Shown here: piece after piece, positions 3,396-63,372 of the stretch
Layout: each line of letters opens with the position of its first letter
Position numbering within the stretch: position 1 is the first letter of the stretch
Assembly (NCBI GenBank): GCA_027858745.1
Contig: JAQICB010000106.1
Span: 1-63,372, forward strand
Direction of reading: 5' to 3'
DNA: 63,372 nt
Source: Bacteroidales bacterium
GTDB lineage: Bacteria; Bacteroidota; Bacteroidia; Bacteroidales; UBA1715
Made by a program: the position numbers and the translations under genes
The notes under the pieces: generated by a model
Seen by the model: the letters and a program-made list of their open reading frames with translations, nothing else
The model's database searches: none
Told to the model about the DNA's origin: nothing

Positions 3396-3978
3396 GAATT
3401 GTTTGTTTTATAGTTGAATAAATCTGTGTTATATGTGGAATTATTAATTCCGTATTGTCGTTATGAATAACAAAATCAGCTTTTTTTATGCATTCATTAT
3501 CCTGTGCTTGTGCAGACATTCGTTGTCGTATTTCTTGTTCAGATATATTGTCTCGTTGTGCAATCCGAGCAATCCGAATATTTTCAGGACAAAAAACATA
3601 TATACTTTTGTCGAACTCCGTATATGTATTACGTGCAAACATAAGAGCATTTTCGTGTATTACAAATGCTCCCTTTTGTTTTGAAACCCATGATTTGTAG
3701 TCTTTTTTAACAGATTTGTGCACACACGATTCTATTTTTTTTCGTTTTTCAGTGTCGGAAAAAATCTGTTTTGCAATATATTGTTTGTTGATTTTTTTAT
3801 TCACATATGCTTGAGAGCCAAGTATTGATATTATTTCCGAAATTAAAATTGGATCGGAATTCATTATTTTTTTTGCTTCTATATCTGCGTAATAAATCGG
3901 TATTCCTAAGTTTTTGAATACTTTTGAAACACTTGTTTTACCACTTCCTATTCCACCGCTTAATCCAACTTCAATCAT
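3388..3978 (-). CDS. coaE: dephospho-CoA kinase
   Basis: P-loop GLSGGIGSGKTSVSKVF at the N-terminus; 196 aa. Confidence 0.9.
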   Translation of the reverse strand: MIEVGLSGGIGSGKTSVSKVFKNLGIPIYYADIEAKKIMNSDPILISEIISILGSQAYVNKKINKQYIAKQIFSDTEKRKKIESCVHKSVKKDYKSWVSKQKGAFVIHENALMFARNTYTEFDKSIYVFCPENIRIARIAQRDNISEQEIRQRMSAQAQDNECIKKADFVIHNDNTELIIPHITQIYSTIKQTIHG

Positions 3979-4964
3979 TTTTCAATTTTTAAATATAGCA
4001 ATTCAGATGGTTGTACAGAAAGTATGGTAACATGTTCCGGAATGTTTGAAAGTGATACCGGAATTGTTTTTTGTTTTTGAGATTGTTGTGCATATTGTGC
4101 AACAGCATGAATAGTTGTATCAATATTGGAATTATAGTGTGCAGAGAATATTTCATACGAAACAATTACCTCTGATTCAGAAATACGTTGCCGTTCTTCT
4201 TTAGGAACCTGACTAAAATCAATAGGTATTTCAATAATGTGTAGCAGTTTTTTGTCGACATCGGCACTTAATTCAACATTCGATTCATATAATCGAATGC
4301 CGGGAACCGGTTTAATATTAAGCGAAACCGAAAATATAGAAGTTACATCGGTTTTTTCGAAAAAATCTGTTTCAATATATTGTAGTGTGTCGAGTATAAC
4401 TTGTGCTCCTTCGAGCATGATAGAATCAGGATTAACACTGAGACTGTCGACAAAACTATAATTTTTTGCACATAAAATATTCACATTTGCCAGAACGGGA
4501 ATTTTTTGTTTGGTAATTATTGAAATTGTATTTTCTAATTTTTCGGGACTAATAGATAGAATTGTTGTTGCCGATGGCGAGAGGTTATTTTCTGCAAATT
4601 CTTGTGTTTCAATTTCTATCTGATGAATTTTTCTGCTTGTATCGTCAATATAATTTCGAGAATCAACCGGGATAACGAAAAATGAATCAAACATATAATA
4701 TTTGAGAAACATATATCCGGATCCTTTCATAGTAACCATTATTTGCTGTTGAGCTGATTTTACAGTCGTGAAATTTTTCGGAATATTTTGATATTCTATA
4801 GTGTAAGGTACGGTAAGTGTATAAATTTTTGCAAAGGCATTCAGAAACCAAAAGAATGATGCAATGGCGAAGAAAATGGCAAAAACAATATAGTTTGGAC
4901 GGTTTTTACGTAACCATAACCAATTAGAACGAATATAATGTGCTATTTTTTTTAAATGAATCAT
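3975..4964 (-). CDS. YbbR-like (CdaR-like) domain protein
   Basis: N-terminal TM anchor and repeated beta-rich units. It sits in the conserved Bacteroidota block nusB/DUF1573/yajC/YbbR-like/coaE. Confidence 0.65.
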   Translation of the reverse strand: MIHLKKIAHYIRSNWLWLRKNRPNYIVFAIFFAIASFFWFLNAFAKIYTLTVPYTIEYQNIPKNFTTVKSAQQQIMVTMKGSGYMFLKYYMFDSFFVIPVDSRNYIDDTSRKIHQIEIETQEFAENNLSPSATTILSISPEKLENTISIITKQKIPVLANVNILCAKNYSFVDSLSVNPDSIMLEGAQVILDTLQYIETDFFEKTDVTSIFSVSLNIKPVPGIRLYESNVELSADVDKKLLHIIEIPIDFSQVPKEERQRISESEVIVSYEIFSAHYNSNIDTTIHAVAQYAQQSQKQKTIPVSLSNIPEHVTILSVQPSELLYLKIEK

Positions 4965-5011
4965 ATTAAAAAATACGGAAAGGATATTCCTTTCCGTATG
5001 TGTAAAAATAA

Positions 5012-5338
5012 TTATTTTCCTCCTTGTACTAATGCTTCAGGGCTTTGTACAAGAGCCGATTTGTCAACTTTTATATGTACGTCTTTTGCTATTTCTAAAA
5101 CAATTATATTGTTTTCTTTAATTTCAATAACTTTTGCATGAATACCTCCTAAGGTTAAGACTTTATCGCCTTTTTGTAATGCCTCGCGAAATTTTCTAGT
5201 TTCTTTTTGTCGTTTCATTTGTGGACGAATGATGAATAAAAAGAAAATAACCATTATACCGATAAGTAAAATAAAACTTCCGGTTCCTCCACCTGCTCCG
5301 GGGGCCGGTGTTTGTAATAAAATGTCTAACATGTTCAT
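5012..5338 (-). CDS. yajC: preprotein translocase subunit YajC
   Basis: 108 aa with a single TM followed by RPQMKRQKE...GDKVLTLGGIHAKV, the YajC signature. Confidence 0.85.
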   Translation of the reverse strand: MNMLDILLQTPAPGAGGGTGSFILLIGIMVIFFLFIIRPQMKRQKETRKFREALQKGDKVLTLGGIHAKVIEIKENNIIVLEIAKDVHIKVDKSALVQSPEALVQGGK

Positions 5339-5357
5339 AGTTTTTAATATATAATTA

Positions 5358-5789
5358 TTAATTTGATTCTGGTTCTATTACCGCAACAAAGCGTAATGTT
5401 GTGGCTTGGGGAACGGTATTTGTAATGACTGTTACTGTTTTTGATTGTTTATCTCGTCTACCTTTCGTGTCAAATGTGATGCTGACATATCCTTTTTCTC
5501 CGGGTTTAACAGGCTCTTTTGAATAATCTGTAGACGTACATCCACATGATGTTCGTATAGACGATATGAGCAAGTCGTTATCTCCCGTATTGGTAAATGT
5601 GAATGTGTTGGTTACTACTTCACCACTTGTAAGTGTGCCTAAGTCTAATGTTTCTTCGTCAAATGAAATACTTGTTTTCGAAGCAACAGATGTTTGAGTT
5701 TTTTGTTGCGTTTCTTCTTTCTTGTTTGTGTTTGACGAACATGCATGCAACATAAATGCCGTGCTGAGCAAAATAAATAATTGTTTCAT
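5358..5789 (-). CDS. DUF1573 domain lipoprotein
   Basis: Signal peptide with lipobox (LHAC). FTFTNTGDNDLLI...SCGCT motif typical of DUF1573. Confidence 0.8.
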   Translation of the reverse strand: MKQLFILLSTAFMLHACSSNTNKKEETQQKTQTSVASKTSISFDEETLDLGTLTSGEVVTNTFTFTNTGDNDLLISSIRTSCGCTSTDYSKEPVKPGEKGYVSITFDTKGRRDKQSKTVTVITNTVPQATTLRFVAVIEPESN

Positions 5790-6986: not shown

Positions 6987-7128
6987 ACTAGAGTTCGACG
7001 TGATTTTTCGAGTTCAGATTAGCTCCGCTGAGCTTGTCCTTTGTCCTCGGTTGATATAAAAAGCTGTTTATCAAGGCGAATTATTGAATAATAGCGAGCT
7101 GTTGTGAAATAATTTAACGCAGAAAAAA
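6987..7128 (-). repeat. MITE-like element, truncated copy 1 (right TIR + core + module C + TTTAACGCAGAAAAA piece; no left TIR)
   Basis: Hand alignment to copy 2 in reverse complement gives 10 mismatches in ~141 nt. Shares the core GAGGACAAAGGAC.AGCTCAGCGGAGCTAATCTGAACTCG with copies 2, 4, 5 and 6. Confidence 0.85.
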
Positions 7129-7141
7129 TGTTATATATCAA

Positions 7142-11591: not shown

Positions 11592-11844
11592 GTTTATAGT
11601 ATGAAATAAGTGTATGTTTGAATTTTTGGCAAATATAATGTTTTTTTAGAATGAAGCATTGTTATGAGAATGAAACTTATAAAGAAAAATTAAATTCGCT
11701 TATGACGGTGCTTTTGGGCACTTGATAATTAGGGCAGATGAATATTTACATGCTTTTTAAAACGCTCATTTTCTAAAGCAAACGATGAGGAATGACGAGT
11801 ACACGCACATAATTAAAAATATAAAAAGGGTGCATAAAAAACAG

Positions 11845-11985
11845 TTTTTCTGCGTTAAATTATTTCACAATAGCTCGCTATTATTCAATAATTCACCTTA
11901 ACAAACAGCTTTTTATATCAACCAAGGACAAAGGACGAGTTCAGCGGAGCTAATCTGAACTCGAAAAATCATGTCGAACTCGGGT
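11845..11985 (+). repeat. MITE-like element, truncated copy 2 (sister of copy 1, opposite orientation)
   Basis: Same architecture as copy 1. Ends with ...GAACTCGAAAAATCATGTCGAACTCGGGT (right TIR). Confidence 0.85.
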
Positions 11986-16659: not shown

Positions 16660-16712
16660 CTGATAAAAGCTGTTAACTTGAGTTCGATGTGATTTTTTAA
16701 GTTTAGAATATT
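16660..16712 (+). repeat. MITE-like element fragment (copy 3: short core-end piece plus a solo left TIR)
   Basis: TGATAAAAGCTGTT followed by ACTTGAGTTCGATGTGATTTTTTAAGTTTAGAATA. This matches the left TIR ACCTGAGTTCGATATAATTTTTTAGGTTCAGAAT. Confidence 0.7.
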
Positions 16713-16800
16713 CTTCTTGAAAACATATTGATTTATCCCGATAATACAGAGTGTATTTTCAATTGAATCGTATCATTTATTTGAGCTCTGAACCGAAAAA

Positions 16801-17289
16801 TTATATCGAAATTACGTTATCTGCCAAGCAGATATCAATTTTTTCAGGTTTCGTAAATGGTGAGAAACGTTTTATAGGTTTCCCTTCACTGTTAATAAGA
16901 AACTTGGTAAAATTCCATTTTATTTTGCTACTGAAGAAGCCTCCTAAATTCTTTTTGAGAAAGGTGTATATTTCGTGAGTATGTGGACCATTAACATCAA
17001 TTTTTGCAAACATGGGAAAGCTTACTCCGTAATTCAGCAAACAGCCTTCAGAAATTGATTTTTCATCTCCCGGTTCCTGATTTGCAAACTGATTGCAGGG
17101 AAAACCAAGGATTACAAAACCTTTGTCTTTATATTTTTGATACAGCTTTTCTAAGCCTTCAAACTGTGGGGTGAGACCGCATTTGCTTGCTGTGTTTACA
17201 ATCAAAATTGTTTTCCCTCTAAACTCATCCATACCCACATCTTTTCCGTGAATATTTTGTGCGGTAAAATTATAAAACTCAGCACTCAT
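16801..17289 (-). CDS. glutathione peroxidase
   Basis: NTASKCGLTPQ active-site Cys motif, LGFPCNQF, WNFTKFL. Confidence 0.9.
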   Translation of the reverse strand: MSAEFYNFTAQNIHGKDVGMDEFRGKTILIVNTASKCGLTPQFEGLEKLYQKYKDKGFVILGFPCNQFANQEPGDEKSISEGCLLNYGVSFPMFAKIDVNGPHTHEIYTFLKKNLGGFFSSKIKWNFTKFLINSEGKPIKRFSPFTKPEKIDICLADNVISI

Positions 17290-35304: not shown

Positions 35305-36744
35305 ATGGAGGTACAACACGAAACTCTATGGGAGAAATGTTTGGACATTATTAAAGATAATTTAGATTCTAAATTATCATTTGAAACATGGTTTAAACCA
35401 ATTAAACCATTGAAAATAGACAATAATGTTTTAACAATTCAAGTCCCTAGTCCTTTTTATTATGAATACATTGAGGCACATTACATAGACTTGTTAAGTA
35501 AAACTCTACGCAAAGTTTTAGGTGCCGAAGCTAAACTGGAGTATAGTGTGATAATGGAGCAACCAACACAAGCAGAGAAAACTCCTACAGCAGTGCAAAT
35601 GCCCGGTAAGTCAAATGTGAATCTTAACAACAAAATCTTTCACCAACCTTCATATTCTTCCGATAATAAGATTATTCGTAACCCATTTATTATCCCCGGA
35701 ATTAAAAATATTCATATAGATTCTCAGTTAAATCCTAATTATTCTTTTGATAATTTTATTGAAGGTGAATGTAATCGACTGGCTCGTTCTGCCGGTCTTA
35801 CTGTTGCCCAAAATAGCGGAAAAACTAATTTTAATCCCTTATTTATATATAGTAAACCGGGACTTGGAAAGTCTCACTTGGTGCAAGCTATTGGTATTGA
35901 AATTAAAGAGAAGTTTCCTAAAAAAACAGTTTTGTATCTTGATGCAGATACGTTCCAACGTCAATTTGCTGAGGCAACTATCAAAAATGAACGTAATGAT
36001 TTTATGCACTTTTATCAAATGATAGATGTGCTTATTATTGACGATGTGCAATGGTTTGCAGGAAAAGAGCGTACTCAAAATGCCTTTTTTCAAATATTTA
36101 ATTATTTGCATCAAAAAAACAAGCAAATAATTCTTACATCTGATCGCCCTCCTGTAGAAATTCAAGGTATTGAAGATAGATTATTGTCTCGTTTTAAATG
36201 GGGACTTTCTGCTGAATTAATGGTACCGGATTTTCAAACGCGTTTAGAAATACTCAAACGAAAAACATATACCGACGGTATTGATATTGATGAAGAAATT
36301 TTAGAGTATGTTGCAAACCATATTTCAACTAATATTCGAGAATTAGAGGGCATTTTGATATCATTACTTGCTCAATCAACAATCAATAATAAAGAAATCA
36401 CAGTTGATTTAGCGAAAGATATTGTCGAAAAATTAGTTAAAAATACCCAACAAGATATTTCAATCGATTTTATCAAAAAAACAGTCTGTGAGTATTTTAG
36501 CATCCCGTTAGAACAATTAAAATCAAAAACTCGCAAACGCGAAATTGTACAATCTCGTCAGGTGGCTATGTATTTTGCTAAAAGTTTTACGAAAAATTCT
36601 TTGGCAACAATAGGTGCTCAGATAGGTGGAAAAGATCACGCTACGGTTCTTCATGCCTGTAAAACAATCAACAATCTTGTTGAAACTGATAAACGCTTTA
36701 AACGATATGTATCTGATATTGAGAAACGTTTTAAAATGCAATAA
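35305..36744 (+). CDS. dnaA: chromosomal replication initiator DnaA
   Basis: Walker A GLGKSHL, sensor motifs and the C-terminal DNA-binding helix (GGKDHATVLHACK). Confidence 0.95.
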   Translation: MEVQHETLWEKCLDIIKDNLDSKLSFETWFKPIKPLKIDNNVLTIQVPSPFYYEYIEAHYIDLLSKTLRKVLGAEAKLEYSVIMEQPTQAEKTPTAVQMPGKSNVNLNNKIFHQPSYSSDNKIIRNPFIIPGIKNIHIDSQLNPNYSFDNFIEGECNRLARSAGLTVAQNSGKTNFNPLFIYSKPGLGKSHLVQAIGIEIKEKFPKKTVLYLDADTFQRQFAEATIKNERNDFMHFYQMIDVLIIDDVQWFAGKERTQNAFFQIFNYLHQKNKQIILTSDRPPVEIQGIEDRLLSRFKWGLSAELMVPDFQTRLEILKRKTYTDGIDIDEEILEYVANHISTNIRELEGILISLLAQSTINNKEITVDLAKDIVEKLVKNTQQDISIDFIKKTVCEYFSIPLEQLKSKTRKREIVQSRQVAMYFAKSFTKNSLATIGAQIGGKDHATVLHACKTINNLVETDKRFKRYVSDIEKRFKMQ

Positions 36745-36824: not shown

Positions 36825-36880
36825 AAAATGTATTGTAATGCATTTTGAATTTTATACACTTTTGGGGATAGCATCTTTAA

Positions 36881-37003
36881 ACCTGAGTTCGATATAATTT
36901 TTTAGGTTCAGAATGCTTATAAACAGCTTTTTATATCAACAGAGAACAAAGGACGAGCTCAGCGGAGCTAATCTGAACTCGAAAAATTACGTCGAACTCG
37001 GGT
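36881..37003 (+). mobile_element. MITE-like element, complete copy 4 (123 bp)
   Basis: ~34-nt imperfect TIRs (ACCTGAGTTCGATATAATTTTTTAGGTTCAGAAT ... ATCTGAACTCGAAAAATTACGTCGAACTCGGGT). Flanked by TTTAA / TTCAA. Confidence 0.8.
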
Positions 37004-37082
37004 TTCAAGGAATGTGATAAATATGAACCACAGTACAATAATGTATTCGAGGATGTATATTTTGAACAGCACGTCAGAAAAA

Positions 37083-42772: not shown

Positions 42773-43729
42773 TTGTTAATGAGTAAATTATATACATTTT
42801 TATTTCTTATAGGTTTTTTTCTTTTATCAAATCCTTATAAGGGGCACTCTCAGGCTGATTGGGTTCGGTATAGATATGAAATAAACGGTGGTATTGGTCC
42901 TTCATTTTTTCTCGGCGAGTTAGGCGGGAATAATGGTATTGGTCAGAATAATATTCTCGACCTTGATTGGGGAGCAACAAGAATTGGCGGGCATATTGGC
43001 GGTCGTTATTTTATTCAACAACGACTTGCGGTACAAGCTTCATTCACGTTTGGTCTCATTCACGGGAGTGATGAAAATACGGAAGAGTTTTACCGAAATT
43101 ATCGCAATGTTTCGTTTCGAAGCCCTATTTATGAGTTTCATACGCGAATTGAGTATAAAATTAGACAAGAACGTTCCGGGCACAGATATGATTTAAAAGG
43201 TGTTCGCGGACGACGTGCTGTGAAATTAGTTACTTATGCTTTTGTGGGAGTAGGTGTTTTCTATTTTAATCCGCAAGCAAAAATTGATGATACATGGATT
43301 AATCTCCGTCCTATAGGAACAGAAGGACAGAATTTTATGGAAACACGTAAGCCGTATTCTCGTGTTGCGATGTCAATTCCATGTGGACTTCAGGTGAAAT
43401 ATTTAGCGAACAGATACTGGTCTTTTTCTTTTGAAGTTGGACCACGCTTTCTTTTTACCGATTATTTAGATGACGTGAGTTCGACGTATGCAAGTCCCGA
43501 TTTAATAGCTGACAATCAAAATGTGGTGCCCGATTATATAGCAAAATTACTTGCAGATCCTGCCTACGAAAGTAATATGCGACCAACTCCTCAGGGAGGG
43601 CTTACGTACGGATATTATAACGAACAAAGAGGAGACCCGTATGATAATGATTTCTATATGTTTGCAATGATTACAGTTCACTATAAGTTGAAAGCAAATA
43701 GAAACGGATGGCCTACTTTTCAAAAATAA
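42773..43729 (+). CDS. outer-membrane beta-barrel protein, DUF6089-like
   Basis: Signal peptide and alternating beta-strand pattern. It holds the position upstream of uppS-bamA, as in other Bacteroidota. Confidence 0.6.
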   Translation: MLMSKLYTFLFLIGFFLLSNPYKGHSQADWVRYRYEINGGIGPSFFLGELGGNNGIGQNNILDLDWGATRIGGHIGGRYFIQQRLAVQASFTFGLIHGSDENTEEFYRNYRNVSFRSPIYEFHTRIEYKIRQERSGHRYDLKGVRGRRAVKLVTYAFVGVGVFYFNPQAKIDDTWINLRPIGTEGQNFMETRKPYSRVAMSIPCGLQVKYLANRYWSFSFEVGPRFLFTDYLDDVSSTYASPDLIADNQNVVPDYIAKLLADPAYESNMRPTPQGGLTYGYYNEQRGDPYDNDFYMFAMITVHYKLKANRNGWPTFQK

Positions 43730-49800: not shown

Positions 49801-49859
49801 TTTTTCTATGTACAAAGTCTCAAAGTTGTGGATAGAAATCGGTCAATTAAACGCTTAAA

Positions 49860-49971
49860 ACCTGAGTTCGATATAATTTAACGCAGAAAAACAGCTTTTT
49901 ATATCAACCGAGGACAAAGGACGAGCTCAGCGGAGCTAATCTGAACTCGAAAAATTACGTCGAACTCAGGT
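49860..49971 (+). mobile_element. MITE-like element, complete copy 5 (112 bp, shortest form)
   Basis: ACCTGAGTTCGATATAATTTAACGCAGAAAAA + core + right TIR. Flanked by TTAAA / TTAAA. Confidence 0.8.
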
Positions 49972-50007
49972 TTAAAATAACCCTACCCATAAGAAACGTA
50001 TTCATTC

Positions 50008-54727: not shown

Positions 54728-54743
54728 GTACTGAAAACTTTAA

Positions 54744-54900
54744 ACCTGAGTTCGACGTAATTTTTCGAGTTCAGATTAGCTCCGCTGAGCTCGTCCTTTG
54801 TCCTCGGTTGATATAAAAAGCCGTTATTATTTCATTATTTTTGATTGAACTTTACTATTTATAAGCGTTATGAACCTAAAAAATTATATTGAACTCTGGT
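54744..54900 (-). mobile_element. MITE-like element, complete copy 6 (157 bp, reverse orientation, carries extra module X)
   Basis: ACCTGAGTTCGACGTAATTTTTCGAGTTCAGATT + core ... AACCTAAAAAATTATATTGAACTCTGGT. Flanked by TTTAA / TTTAA. Confidence 0.8.
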
Positions 54901-54974
54901 TTTAAGGTGATTTTTTCGTAGAGCTTCATATGAAGATAGAATTTTGAGCAACAAGACAGAAATTAAATAAACTA

Positions 54975-60590: not shown

Positions 60591-60656
60591 TTACAGATTC
60601 AATATGCTGTATGGTTTTTTAAATATGTTTGGGCAAGGGTATGTGGCATACTAAGA

Positions 60657-60813
60657 ACCTGAGTTTGATATAATTTTTTAGATTCAGAACGCTTATAAAT
60701 AGTGAGATTTAATTAAAAATAATGAAATAACAGCTCGCTATTATTCAATAATTTGCCTTGATAAACAGCTTTTTATATCAACCTGAACTCGAAAAATTAC
60801 GTCGAACTCAGGT
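60657..60813 (+). mobile_element. MITE-like element, complete copy 7 (157 bp; extra modules X and C, 32-nt GC-rich core deleted)
   Basis: Both TIRs are present. Flanked by the non-palindromic direct repeat TAAGA / TAAGA (60652-60656 and 60814-60818). Confidence 0.85.
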
Positions 60814-60858
60814 TAAGAAGGCGGATGATTTTATTCAATCTGAATTAATAACCTGAGG

Positions 60859-63236: not shown

Positions 63237-63259
63237 TTTTTACATATTATGCTTTATGA

Positions 63260-63372
63260 TTATCCGTGTTTGTACCTAAATTCATTTTTATTACTAACAG
63301 CAGCCACTAAAAGCCTACCAAATAAGGCTTCTTTAAAGTATCTGCGATTGAACTTATAACAGAATTCATCCA
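63260..63372 (-). mobile_element. IS1595-family transposase gene, 3-prime end only (runs off the window)
   Basis: Hand translation of the minus strand: DEFCYKFNRRYFKEALFGRLLVAAVSNKNEFRYKHG*. (L)DEFCYxFNRR is the characteristic C-terminal motif of ISXO2-like/IS1595 transposases. Confidence 0.5.

Follow-up and report, generated by a model that had tools for sequence, protein, structure and literature searches.

The 63,372-nucleotide contig JAQICB010000106.1 of a Bacteroidales bacterium (GCA_027858745.1), hereafter the window, carries seven copies of one non-coding element bounded by ACCTGAGTTCGA...TCGAACTCAGGT, the intact copies being 112-157 bp long. [quoted passage not shown] The reading draws on its terminal inverted repeats (TIRs), direct 5-bp duplications, target preference, hundreds of copies, differing sites of insertion and absence at orthologous junctions. 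A MITE-like element with imperfect TIRs of ~34 nt had been proposed in the original prediction; TIRs of ~33 nt were found, and the target-site duplications, the composition of the flanks and the copy number support that proposal. Beyond it, the element is built of three deletable hairpin modules, occurs in several genera and has ends and duplications resembling those of ISEcp1-like insertion sequences (ISs) of the IS1380 family.

Ends, target sites and copies in the window

The terminal motif ACCTGAGTTCGAYRTAATTT, with up to three mismatches allowed, matches the 63 kb at 12 places, compared with 0.06 expected from dinucleotide shuffles, and a repeat finder grouped the window copies and their inverted arms into families that are 84-98% alike. 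The TIRs are imperfect, with 29 of 36 positions identical in the copy at 36881-37003. In the full-length form the left TIR is ACCTGAGTTCGATATAATTTTTTAGGTTCAGAA and the reverse complement of the right TIR is ACCTGAGTTCGACGTAATTTTTCGAGTTCAGAT, with a pair of GAGTTC boxes, spaced by 19 nt, in each. Consistent differences separate the two ends (TA versus CG after GA; TAG versus CGA before GTTCAG), much as they do the left and right inverted repeats (IRL and IRR) of transposons.

The full-length order (~295 bp) is left TIR, hairpin module H1 (~92 nt), a short linker, H2 (~93 nt), H3 (~31 nt) and right TIR; the longest copies with this design are found at loci L009 (295 bp), L007 and L019 (both 262 bp) of related genomes. 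The window copies (112-157 bp) and the mini forms are internal-deletion derivatives that keep the ends. Beyond the window the family ranges from mini forms of 40 nt (L016) and ~35 nt (L025) up to 424 bp (L037), the last with additional DNA within H1, and the same ends also enclose unrelated or tandem-repeat cargo (L001, L005, L020, L021 and L027). Internal tandem repeats comprise three units of ~46 nt in L020 (about 2400-2730) and units of ~60 nt in L027 (about 500-770), and in a Flavobacteriaceae metagenome-assembled genome (MAG) the first 11 nt of an end are triplicated in tandem (L010, 6538-6579).

Target-site duplications were assessed by pairing ends that lie within 30-700 bp of one another and comparing their outer 5-mers, the same comparison displaced by 5 nt serving as the control. 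Perfect direct 5-bp repeats flank 6 of the 12 complete copies from the window and related genomes; those outside the window are TAAAA (L009), TATTA (L019) and TATAA, the last around the 40-nt mini element of L016. Two further copies, at window position 36881 and in L007, have flanks matching at four of five positions, where displaced-flank controls gave zero to three of five. At -5 the flank is T in 87% of 47 ends, at -4 it is A in 62%, at -3 either T or A, at -2 T in 66% and at -1 A in 94%, and from -6 outward its composition equals the background. The target is a 5-bp TAWTA/TTWAA-like site (T-N-N-N-A) that is duplicated on insertion. The AT-rich 5-mers had originally been feared to be mere extensions of the TIRs; because they are of odd length, however, the central base separates a direct from an inverted repeat, and the perfect pairs are direct, so that they are more informative than was assumed.

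Four complete copies had been predicted in the window, and reading of their ends and flanks confirmed both the coordinates and the quoted 5-mers. The copy at 36881-37003 (plus strand, 123 bp) consists of the left TIR, a fused H1/H2 remnant, H3 and the right TIR; dnaA and a hexapeptide-repeat gene converge on it with their 3' ends. It is flanked by TTTAA (36876-36880) and TTCAA (37004-37008), and has a predicted fold of -45.3 kcal/mol (z -7.8). A role of this dnaA-adjacent copy in oriC was rejected, there being a single DnaA-box-like site nearby. The copy at 49860-49971 (plus strand, 112 bp) retains the first 20 nt of the left TIR, an H2 arm, H3 and the right TIR, and is located between convergent murI and gamma-carbonic-anhydrase-like genes within a perfect duplication of TTAAA (49855-49859 and 49972-49976). 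In opposite orientation, the 157-bp copy at 54744-54900 (minus strand) reads from the left as right TIR, H3, part of H2, part of H1 and left TIR; it is found past the tpiA terminator and upstream of prmA, with TTTAA duplicated perfectly at 54739-54743 and 54901-54905. The fourth, at 60657-60813 (plus strand, 157 bp), joins the left TIR and the left half of H1 to the right half of H2 and the right TIR without H3. Its perfect duplication, TAAGA at 60652-60656 and 60814-60818, is non-palindromic; it lies between two converging genes, one of 1573 amino acids and one yceG/mltG-like, and its fold has a z of -6.2. The segments 49887-49976 and 54739-54828 are 98% complementary and look recent; judged from this sequence likeness, young copies of the element exist.

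Truncated or degenerate copies had been reported at 6987-7128, 11845-11985 and 16660-16712; all three exist, but with other limits. The copy at 6987-7138 (minus strand) is one-ended, containing the right TIR, H3 and H2 without the linker, H1 and left TIR, and adjoins the lspA stop codon. Its counterpart at 11834-11985 (plus strand), also one-ended, contains H2, H3 and the right TIR and is located upstream of ileS. These two are 93% complementary over 148 nt, share an identical internal truncation point and bracket the ileS-dksA-like-lspA operon with their right TIRs facing outward; the pair could be a substrate for inversion or a relic of some event of the composite type. A composite transposon as such was rejected, since the cargo is a housekeeping operon. 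The outer flanks of the pair carry a 9-bp direct repeat, TGATTATAA, with a 2-nt offset on the right. The ~730 bp between the second copy and rpmB, which encodes L28 (11986-12712), contain no open reading frame (ORF) of at least 80 amino acids, tRNA or Rfam hit.

The third is an old, degenerate but two-ended copy at 16676-16817 (142 bp, strand not assigned). A glutathione peroxidase gene (gpx) takes its last five codons and its TAA stop from the terminal 17 nt of this copy, the C-terminal residues within the element end being NVISI and NLSSI, each followed by the stop, in the window and a sister species (L022). The terminus that encodes them reads AAC(C/G)T(G/A)A(G/T)TTCGATATAA and is found at window positions 16801-16817 and at L022 1231-1244. 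This copy is the exception to the earlier statement that the element always lies outside coding sequence. With long ORFs taken as genes, element copies occupy seven intergenic gaps longer than 200 bp, as had been counted, out of nine such gaps rather than roughly ten. The claim that the element has no ORF held for every copy, the longest stop-free stretch being 56 codons. A 16-nt match to the right TIR at 43473-43488 (ACGTGAGTTCGACGTA) was set aside as a coding coincidence, the ORF peptide DDVSSTYASPDL being conserved in the orthologue at L044, and an origin from tRNA was rejected, there being no tRNA or tmRNA within the window.

Hosts, copy number and probable mobility

The housekeeping genes of the window include dnaA (35305-36744), tpiA, prmA, murI, bamA, ileS and rpmB. 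With the TIM proteins of Mangrovibacterium, Roseimarinus and Gaoshiqia, genera of the Prolixibacteraceae, that of the window shares 78-79% identity. Identical copies of its genes came solely from a single JGI metagenome and from the Logan assemblies of a single saline-spring study. A sister species is represented by the MAG GCA_964558075.1 (CAZLCY01), which shares 8 kb of synteny with the window at 86.7% identity. In the Logan contigs of two saline-spring DNA runs, the best-conserved element k-mers reach depths of 3700-5600 compared with ~20 for unique DNA, which indicates, contig-based depth being a crude measure, ~160-270 copies per genome equivalent summed over all carriers of the element in the community. 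Contigs break inside element copies in three independent assemblies (JGI, Logan). A scan for the end motif, with one genome per species, returned at least 30 loci, most of them at unrelated sites in MAGs of Bacteroidales, Prolixibacteraceae, Marinilabiliaceae and Saccharicrinis. The element family spans several Marinilabiliales lineages and genera at differing sites.

Comparison of orthologous junctions bears on the element's mobility. The tpiA-prmA gap, occupied in the window by the copy at 54744-54900, measures 35 and 74 bp in the relatives L034 and L037 (TIM 86% identical) and contains the terminator only; at L033 the same junction holds 326 bp of unrelated DNA. The junction of murI with the gamma-carbonic-anhydrase gene is a 2-bp gap in L033, a 10-bp overlap in L044 and 207 bp in the window. 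Between the window and the tpiA-prmA spacer of the sister species (L040), alignment stops exactly at the left end of the element and resumes at its right end, and the window minus the element and minus one TTTAA is colinear with the L040 site. L040 itself carries at 720-860 an unrelated insert of ~140 bp (GGGTCTGCTTTC...CACTTAAAC) with TTT/TTT flanks, exactly at the point of the window's 157-bp copy. This insert is unique among all sequences compared, and either a hot spot was hit twice or one insert replaced another.

The copy at 16676-16817 is shared with the sister species at the orthologous site (L022). By a count from the alignment its interior is ~60-65% identical, compared with ~93% in the adjoining intergenic DNA; thus, this copy predates the split of the two species and is decaying. 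Among the saline-spring contigs aligned to the window no joint that skips the element was listed, Logan contigs dropping rare variants, and a metagenome scan with PrmA for relatives with an empty site found no relative. Contigs with identical DnaA, TIM and L19 were rejected as a source of empty sites, all of them coming from the same population and being broken within the element.

Hairpin modules and competing explanations

As predicted, intact copies fold as long hairpins (z -6.2 to -10 relative to shuffles). Four copies of H1 from four lineages align over 37 pairs, with 96.6% of cells paired, 11 pairs with two-sided changes and none changed on one side only; these values were reached by 0 of 500 shuffles, and slid controls gave at most 1. 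Among nine copies of H2, 13 of 29 pairs have double changes. The double-sided changes show that the palindromes are maintained. This maintenance could result from selection at the level of transposition, with only structured copies leaving descendants, from an RNA-level role of co-transcribed copies, or from template-switch correction between the arms, a process known from quasi-palindromes in DNA. That modules are freely lost and that the old copy is decaying both speak against most copies serving the host.

As an alternative, the element could in the first place be a structured RNA or a cis-acting RNA module, such as a stabiliser in 3' untranslated regions, a processing site or a terminator-like hairpin, whose spread is secondary. 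The very stable folds, the compensatory pairing in H1 and H2, the position of most copies just past gene 3' ends and the presence of element k-mers in a metatranscriptome (240-416, compared with ~2-15 in most neighbouring gene bins) would all fit. In that one unstranded metatranscriptome, however, most neighbouring gene bins have a higher RNA/DNA depth ratio than the element k-mers (~0.05-0.09), several bins having no RNA at all, and contig depth, a crude measure, gave no evidence of an abundant small RNA from the element. Copies occur in both orientations relative to the neighbouring genes, the ends persist where modules have been freely deleted, the insertions have 5-bp duplications and a target preference, the old orthologous copy diverges faster than its flanks, and template switching between the arms of DNA palindromes can mimic covariation. 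The whole window gave no Rfam hit at the gathering score, and at E<=1 the full-length element and one window copy gave only a chance hit to a plant microRNA hairpin. We consider an RNA module improbable as the primary nature of the element. None of the outcomes that the original prediction had named as contrary to a MITE (no consistent duplication together with no occupied/empty polymorphism, or a hit to an RNA family or a named repeat) was observed.

Other kinds of mobile or repeated DNA were also weighed. The AT-rich 5-bp duplication and the long TIRs are reminiscent of a Tn3-family-derived miniature element (TIME) moved by a Tn3-type transposase, and TIMEs are reported to assemble mosaic non-autonomous elements (PMC4133298). 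Tn3-family inverted repeats start with GGGG, are ~38 bp long and have an inner TAAG box, whereas the element's ends start with ACCTGAG and lack such a box; in addition, no Tn3-type transposase was present at any examined locus. This origin is very improbable. A mosaic of extragenic palindromes of the REP/BIME kind, spread by RAYT (an IS200/IS605-type tyrosine transposase) or by recombination and not by DDE transposition, whether cut-and-paste or copy-and-paste, would share the modular build with a hairpin in every module, the strictly intergenic location and the high copy number. RAYT/IS200-type insertion leaves no target duplication, however, whereas the element has direct 5-bp repeats; it has no GTAG/CGTC head, its units are framed by a pair of 33-nt TIRs instead of being single palindromes of 20-40 nt, and the window shows no RAYT gene, which together make this kinship remote. 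Hardly credible at all are site-specific recombination sites (integron attC-like or Xer/dif-like): imperfect inverted repeats of variable length after gene 3' ends would be expected of them, but the neighbours here are housekeeping genes in conserved synteny (dnaA, tpiA, prmA, murI, ileS, bamA), copies lie in both orientations with direct 5-bp duplications, and the window has no integrase.

Possible relation to ISEcp1-like transposons, known repeats and significance

The mechanism we infer for the element as a MITE includes mobilisation in trans, a transposase family and possibly current activity. A DDE transposase would bind both TIRs and insert the element into AT-rich T-N-N-N-A sites (mostly TAWTA/TTWAA) through a 5-bp staggered cut, the repair of which would produce the 5-bp duplication. 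Copies would then build up where insertion is tolerated, in intergenic DNA and mainly at gene 3' ends, and undergo neutral decay. The likeliest source of the transposase would be an ISEcp1-like member of the IS1380 family, a partner indicated by the likeness of the ends together with the 5-bp TNNNA duplications.

The IRL of ISEcp1 is CCTAGATTCTACGT, and its 5-bp AT-rich repeats include ACTCA, TAATA and TAAGA (PMC6061673). On plasmid pC15-1a the ISEcp1 ends are CCTAGATTCTACGT and, reverse-complemented, CCTAAATTCCACGT. The element's right end, CCTGAGTTCGACGT, conforms to CCTNNNTTCNACGT, the pattern common to ISEcp1 IRL and IRR. IS1678 of Enterococcus has ends CCTGAATAATTCATA and a duplication of TTCTA, and IS1678-like ends begin with CCTGA. 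The 80 metagenomic IS1380-family loci listed have mostly CCTGAAT[AT]ATTCAT ends, seven of them with perfect 5-bp duplications. Within the Marinilabiliales, an ISEcp1-like element of a Labilibaculum MAG has an IRL, CCGCATTCCACGT, that is a close variant of the CCTNNNTTCNACGT pattern, and transposases of the ISEcp1-like kind that share 80% identity or more with the Labilibaculum one are widespread and have ISEcp1-type ends. The element is like the ISEcp1-like/IS1380 ISs (DDE_Tnp_1_4) in having ends that fit CCTNNNTTCNACGT apart from an extra outer A/T pair and in 5-bp AT-rich duplications, often T...A, and one-ended and variable-cargo forms are common in both. It differs from them in having no transposase gene, a longer TIR (33 nt), a second GAGTTC box and hundreds of copies. 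Membership of the IS1380 family is what we infer from sequence likeness, and an origin from that family has, in our estimate, slightly less than an even chance.

Among the environmental ISEcp1-like elements, the transposases at L134-L138, L133 and L049 are at least 80% mutually identical on diverse contigs with unchanged ends; the labels of such contigs include one Labilibaculum MAG and one ANME-2 archaeon MAG. In each of the five P0352 loci listed (L134-L138) the same PNPOx-like gene comes after the IRR, an arrangement like that of a one-ended transposition unit.

Several observations weigh against a MITE with an ISEcp1-like partner. At L021 and L037 the flanking 5-mers match only with a 2-nt offset that skips the TA beside the left end, and several copies have no matching flanks (L028, L014 and the window copy at 16676, flanked by TGTTA and TATCT). 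Many one-ended 'solo' ends exist in the family. A purely selfish, decaying transposon does not predict the compensatory changes in H1 and H2. No exact empty site was seen at near-identical sequence, the interspecies sites being too diverged or carrying other DNA (L033, L040). No transposase gene lies beside element ends in the window or at the 30 genome loci examined, and an autonomous element with such ends turned up neither among the 80 IS1380-family loci, nor among the ISEcp1-like loci listed, nor in viral contigs (0 matches). The match of CCTGAGTTCGACGT to the ISEcp1 IRL (10 of 14 positions) spans 14 nt and concerns a candidate family chosen beforehand; the comparison of partners covered IS1380 and ISEcp1-like families. 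The element also has an extra A/T pair outside the CC...GG with which IS1380 ends start.

As originally noted, the window contains no autonomous IS with matching ends; no DDE_Tnp_1_4 transposase carrying these ends was found among the loci listed, and the ORFs adjoining solo or odd-cargo ends at 11 loci are ordinary genes. The solo ends could be remnants or insertions of one end only, and suggest that the partner has spread horizontally. Examples of 22-25 nt with a TNNNA flank and no recognisable partner end are found at L006 (5926), L012 (5825), L002 (5061) and L019 (527); the hosts of solo ends include a freshwater Bacteroidetes MAG and a Thioploca MAG.

The window itself ends inside a different high-copy repeat (63256-63372), with a depth of ~1000-1075 compared with ~20-25 in the adjoining unique sequence, or ~45-50 copies. 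Its outer end is ATGATTATCCGTGTTTGTACCTAAATTCATT, and a minus-strand ORF ends in WMNSVISSIADTLKKPYLVGF followed by a stop; this repeat is probably an active IS, to which no family was assigned. A metatranscriptome contig of 1359 nt ends exactly at 63256, and in run X2 a 7.6-kb contig continues past 63255 into other sequence and looks like an empty-site allele of the repeat. Junction contigs place this repeat or its derivatives in or beside MITE copies (joints 49879>63253/63255 and 54904>63255). It was rejected as the partner of the MITE, its end, ATGATTATCCGTG..., being unrelated.

Among known repeats, the Correia elements of Neisseria (CREE/NEMIS) are intergenic, number in the hundreds, measure ~100-160 bp, have long TIRs and size classes formed by deletion, fold as long hairpins and are often co-transcribed. 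The element resembles them as a high-copy intergenic MITE with size classes by internal deletion and long hairpin folding; Correia elements, in contrast, have a TA duplication and unrelated ends, whereas the element has a 5-bp duplication and three separable hairpin modules and occurs in several genera. A TA-duplicating MITE (Correia-like or IS630-Tc1-type) was rejected on the left flanks, which end in AA or GA in the copies with perfect duplications (TTTAA, TTAAA, TAAGA). Repeats of the BOX, RUP and BIME types are modular, structured and intergenic, with units in varying combinations (PMC3049150). The element is likewise modular and intergenic with strong potential for secondary structure, but a single TIR pair with target duplications always encloses its modules, a framing that BOX and BIME lack. 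In the same phylum, the MITEs of Porphyromonas gingivalis (BrickBuilt, MITE239/464/700) are intergenic, some with internal repeats (PMC4596501). They have AAGACCTTTGCA-type TIRs, which match IS5-family ISPg elements and are unrelated to those of the element, and a copy number of 10-20 compared with ~200.

No description of the element family was found in the literature, and a search with the end sequence gave chance primer matches only. Bacteroidota MITEs have been catalogued by the tens of thousands in large automated censuses (PMC11602168), and the family may already be present, unnamed, in their tables. It seems unlikely to us that this is the first described high-copy MITE family from ISEcp1-like (IS1380) elements, with H1 and H2 under structural constraint, horizontally moved across Marinilabiliales and leaving solo ends in Flavobacteriaceae and the Thioploca MAG. 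If it were, the fact that H1 and H2 change almost only on both sides at once would mean that some step depends on structure, which could be the recognition of single-stranded or cruciform DNA in mobilisation or a role that co-transcribed copies play as RNA.

The hundreds of copies of the element break short-read MAG assemblies and can be mistaken for regulatory RNAs; at least once it rewrote the 3' end of a gene (gpx), and the inverted pair around an essential operon may serve as a substrate for inversion. ISEcp1 is clinically relevant, mobilising neighbouring genes via loosely defined ends, and an amplified non-autonomous relative with a 33-nt, two-box end would help to define what such transposases recognise. 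The covarying internal hairpins, in turn, provide a test case for selection versus template-switch repair in the palindromes of MITEs.

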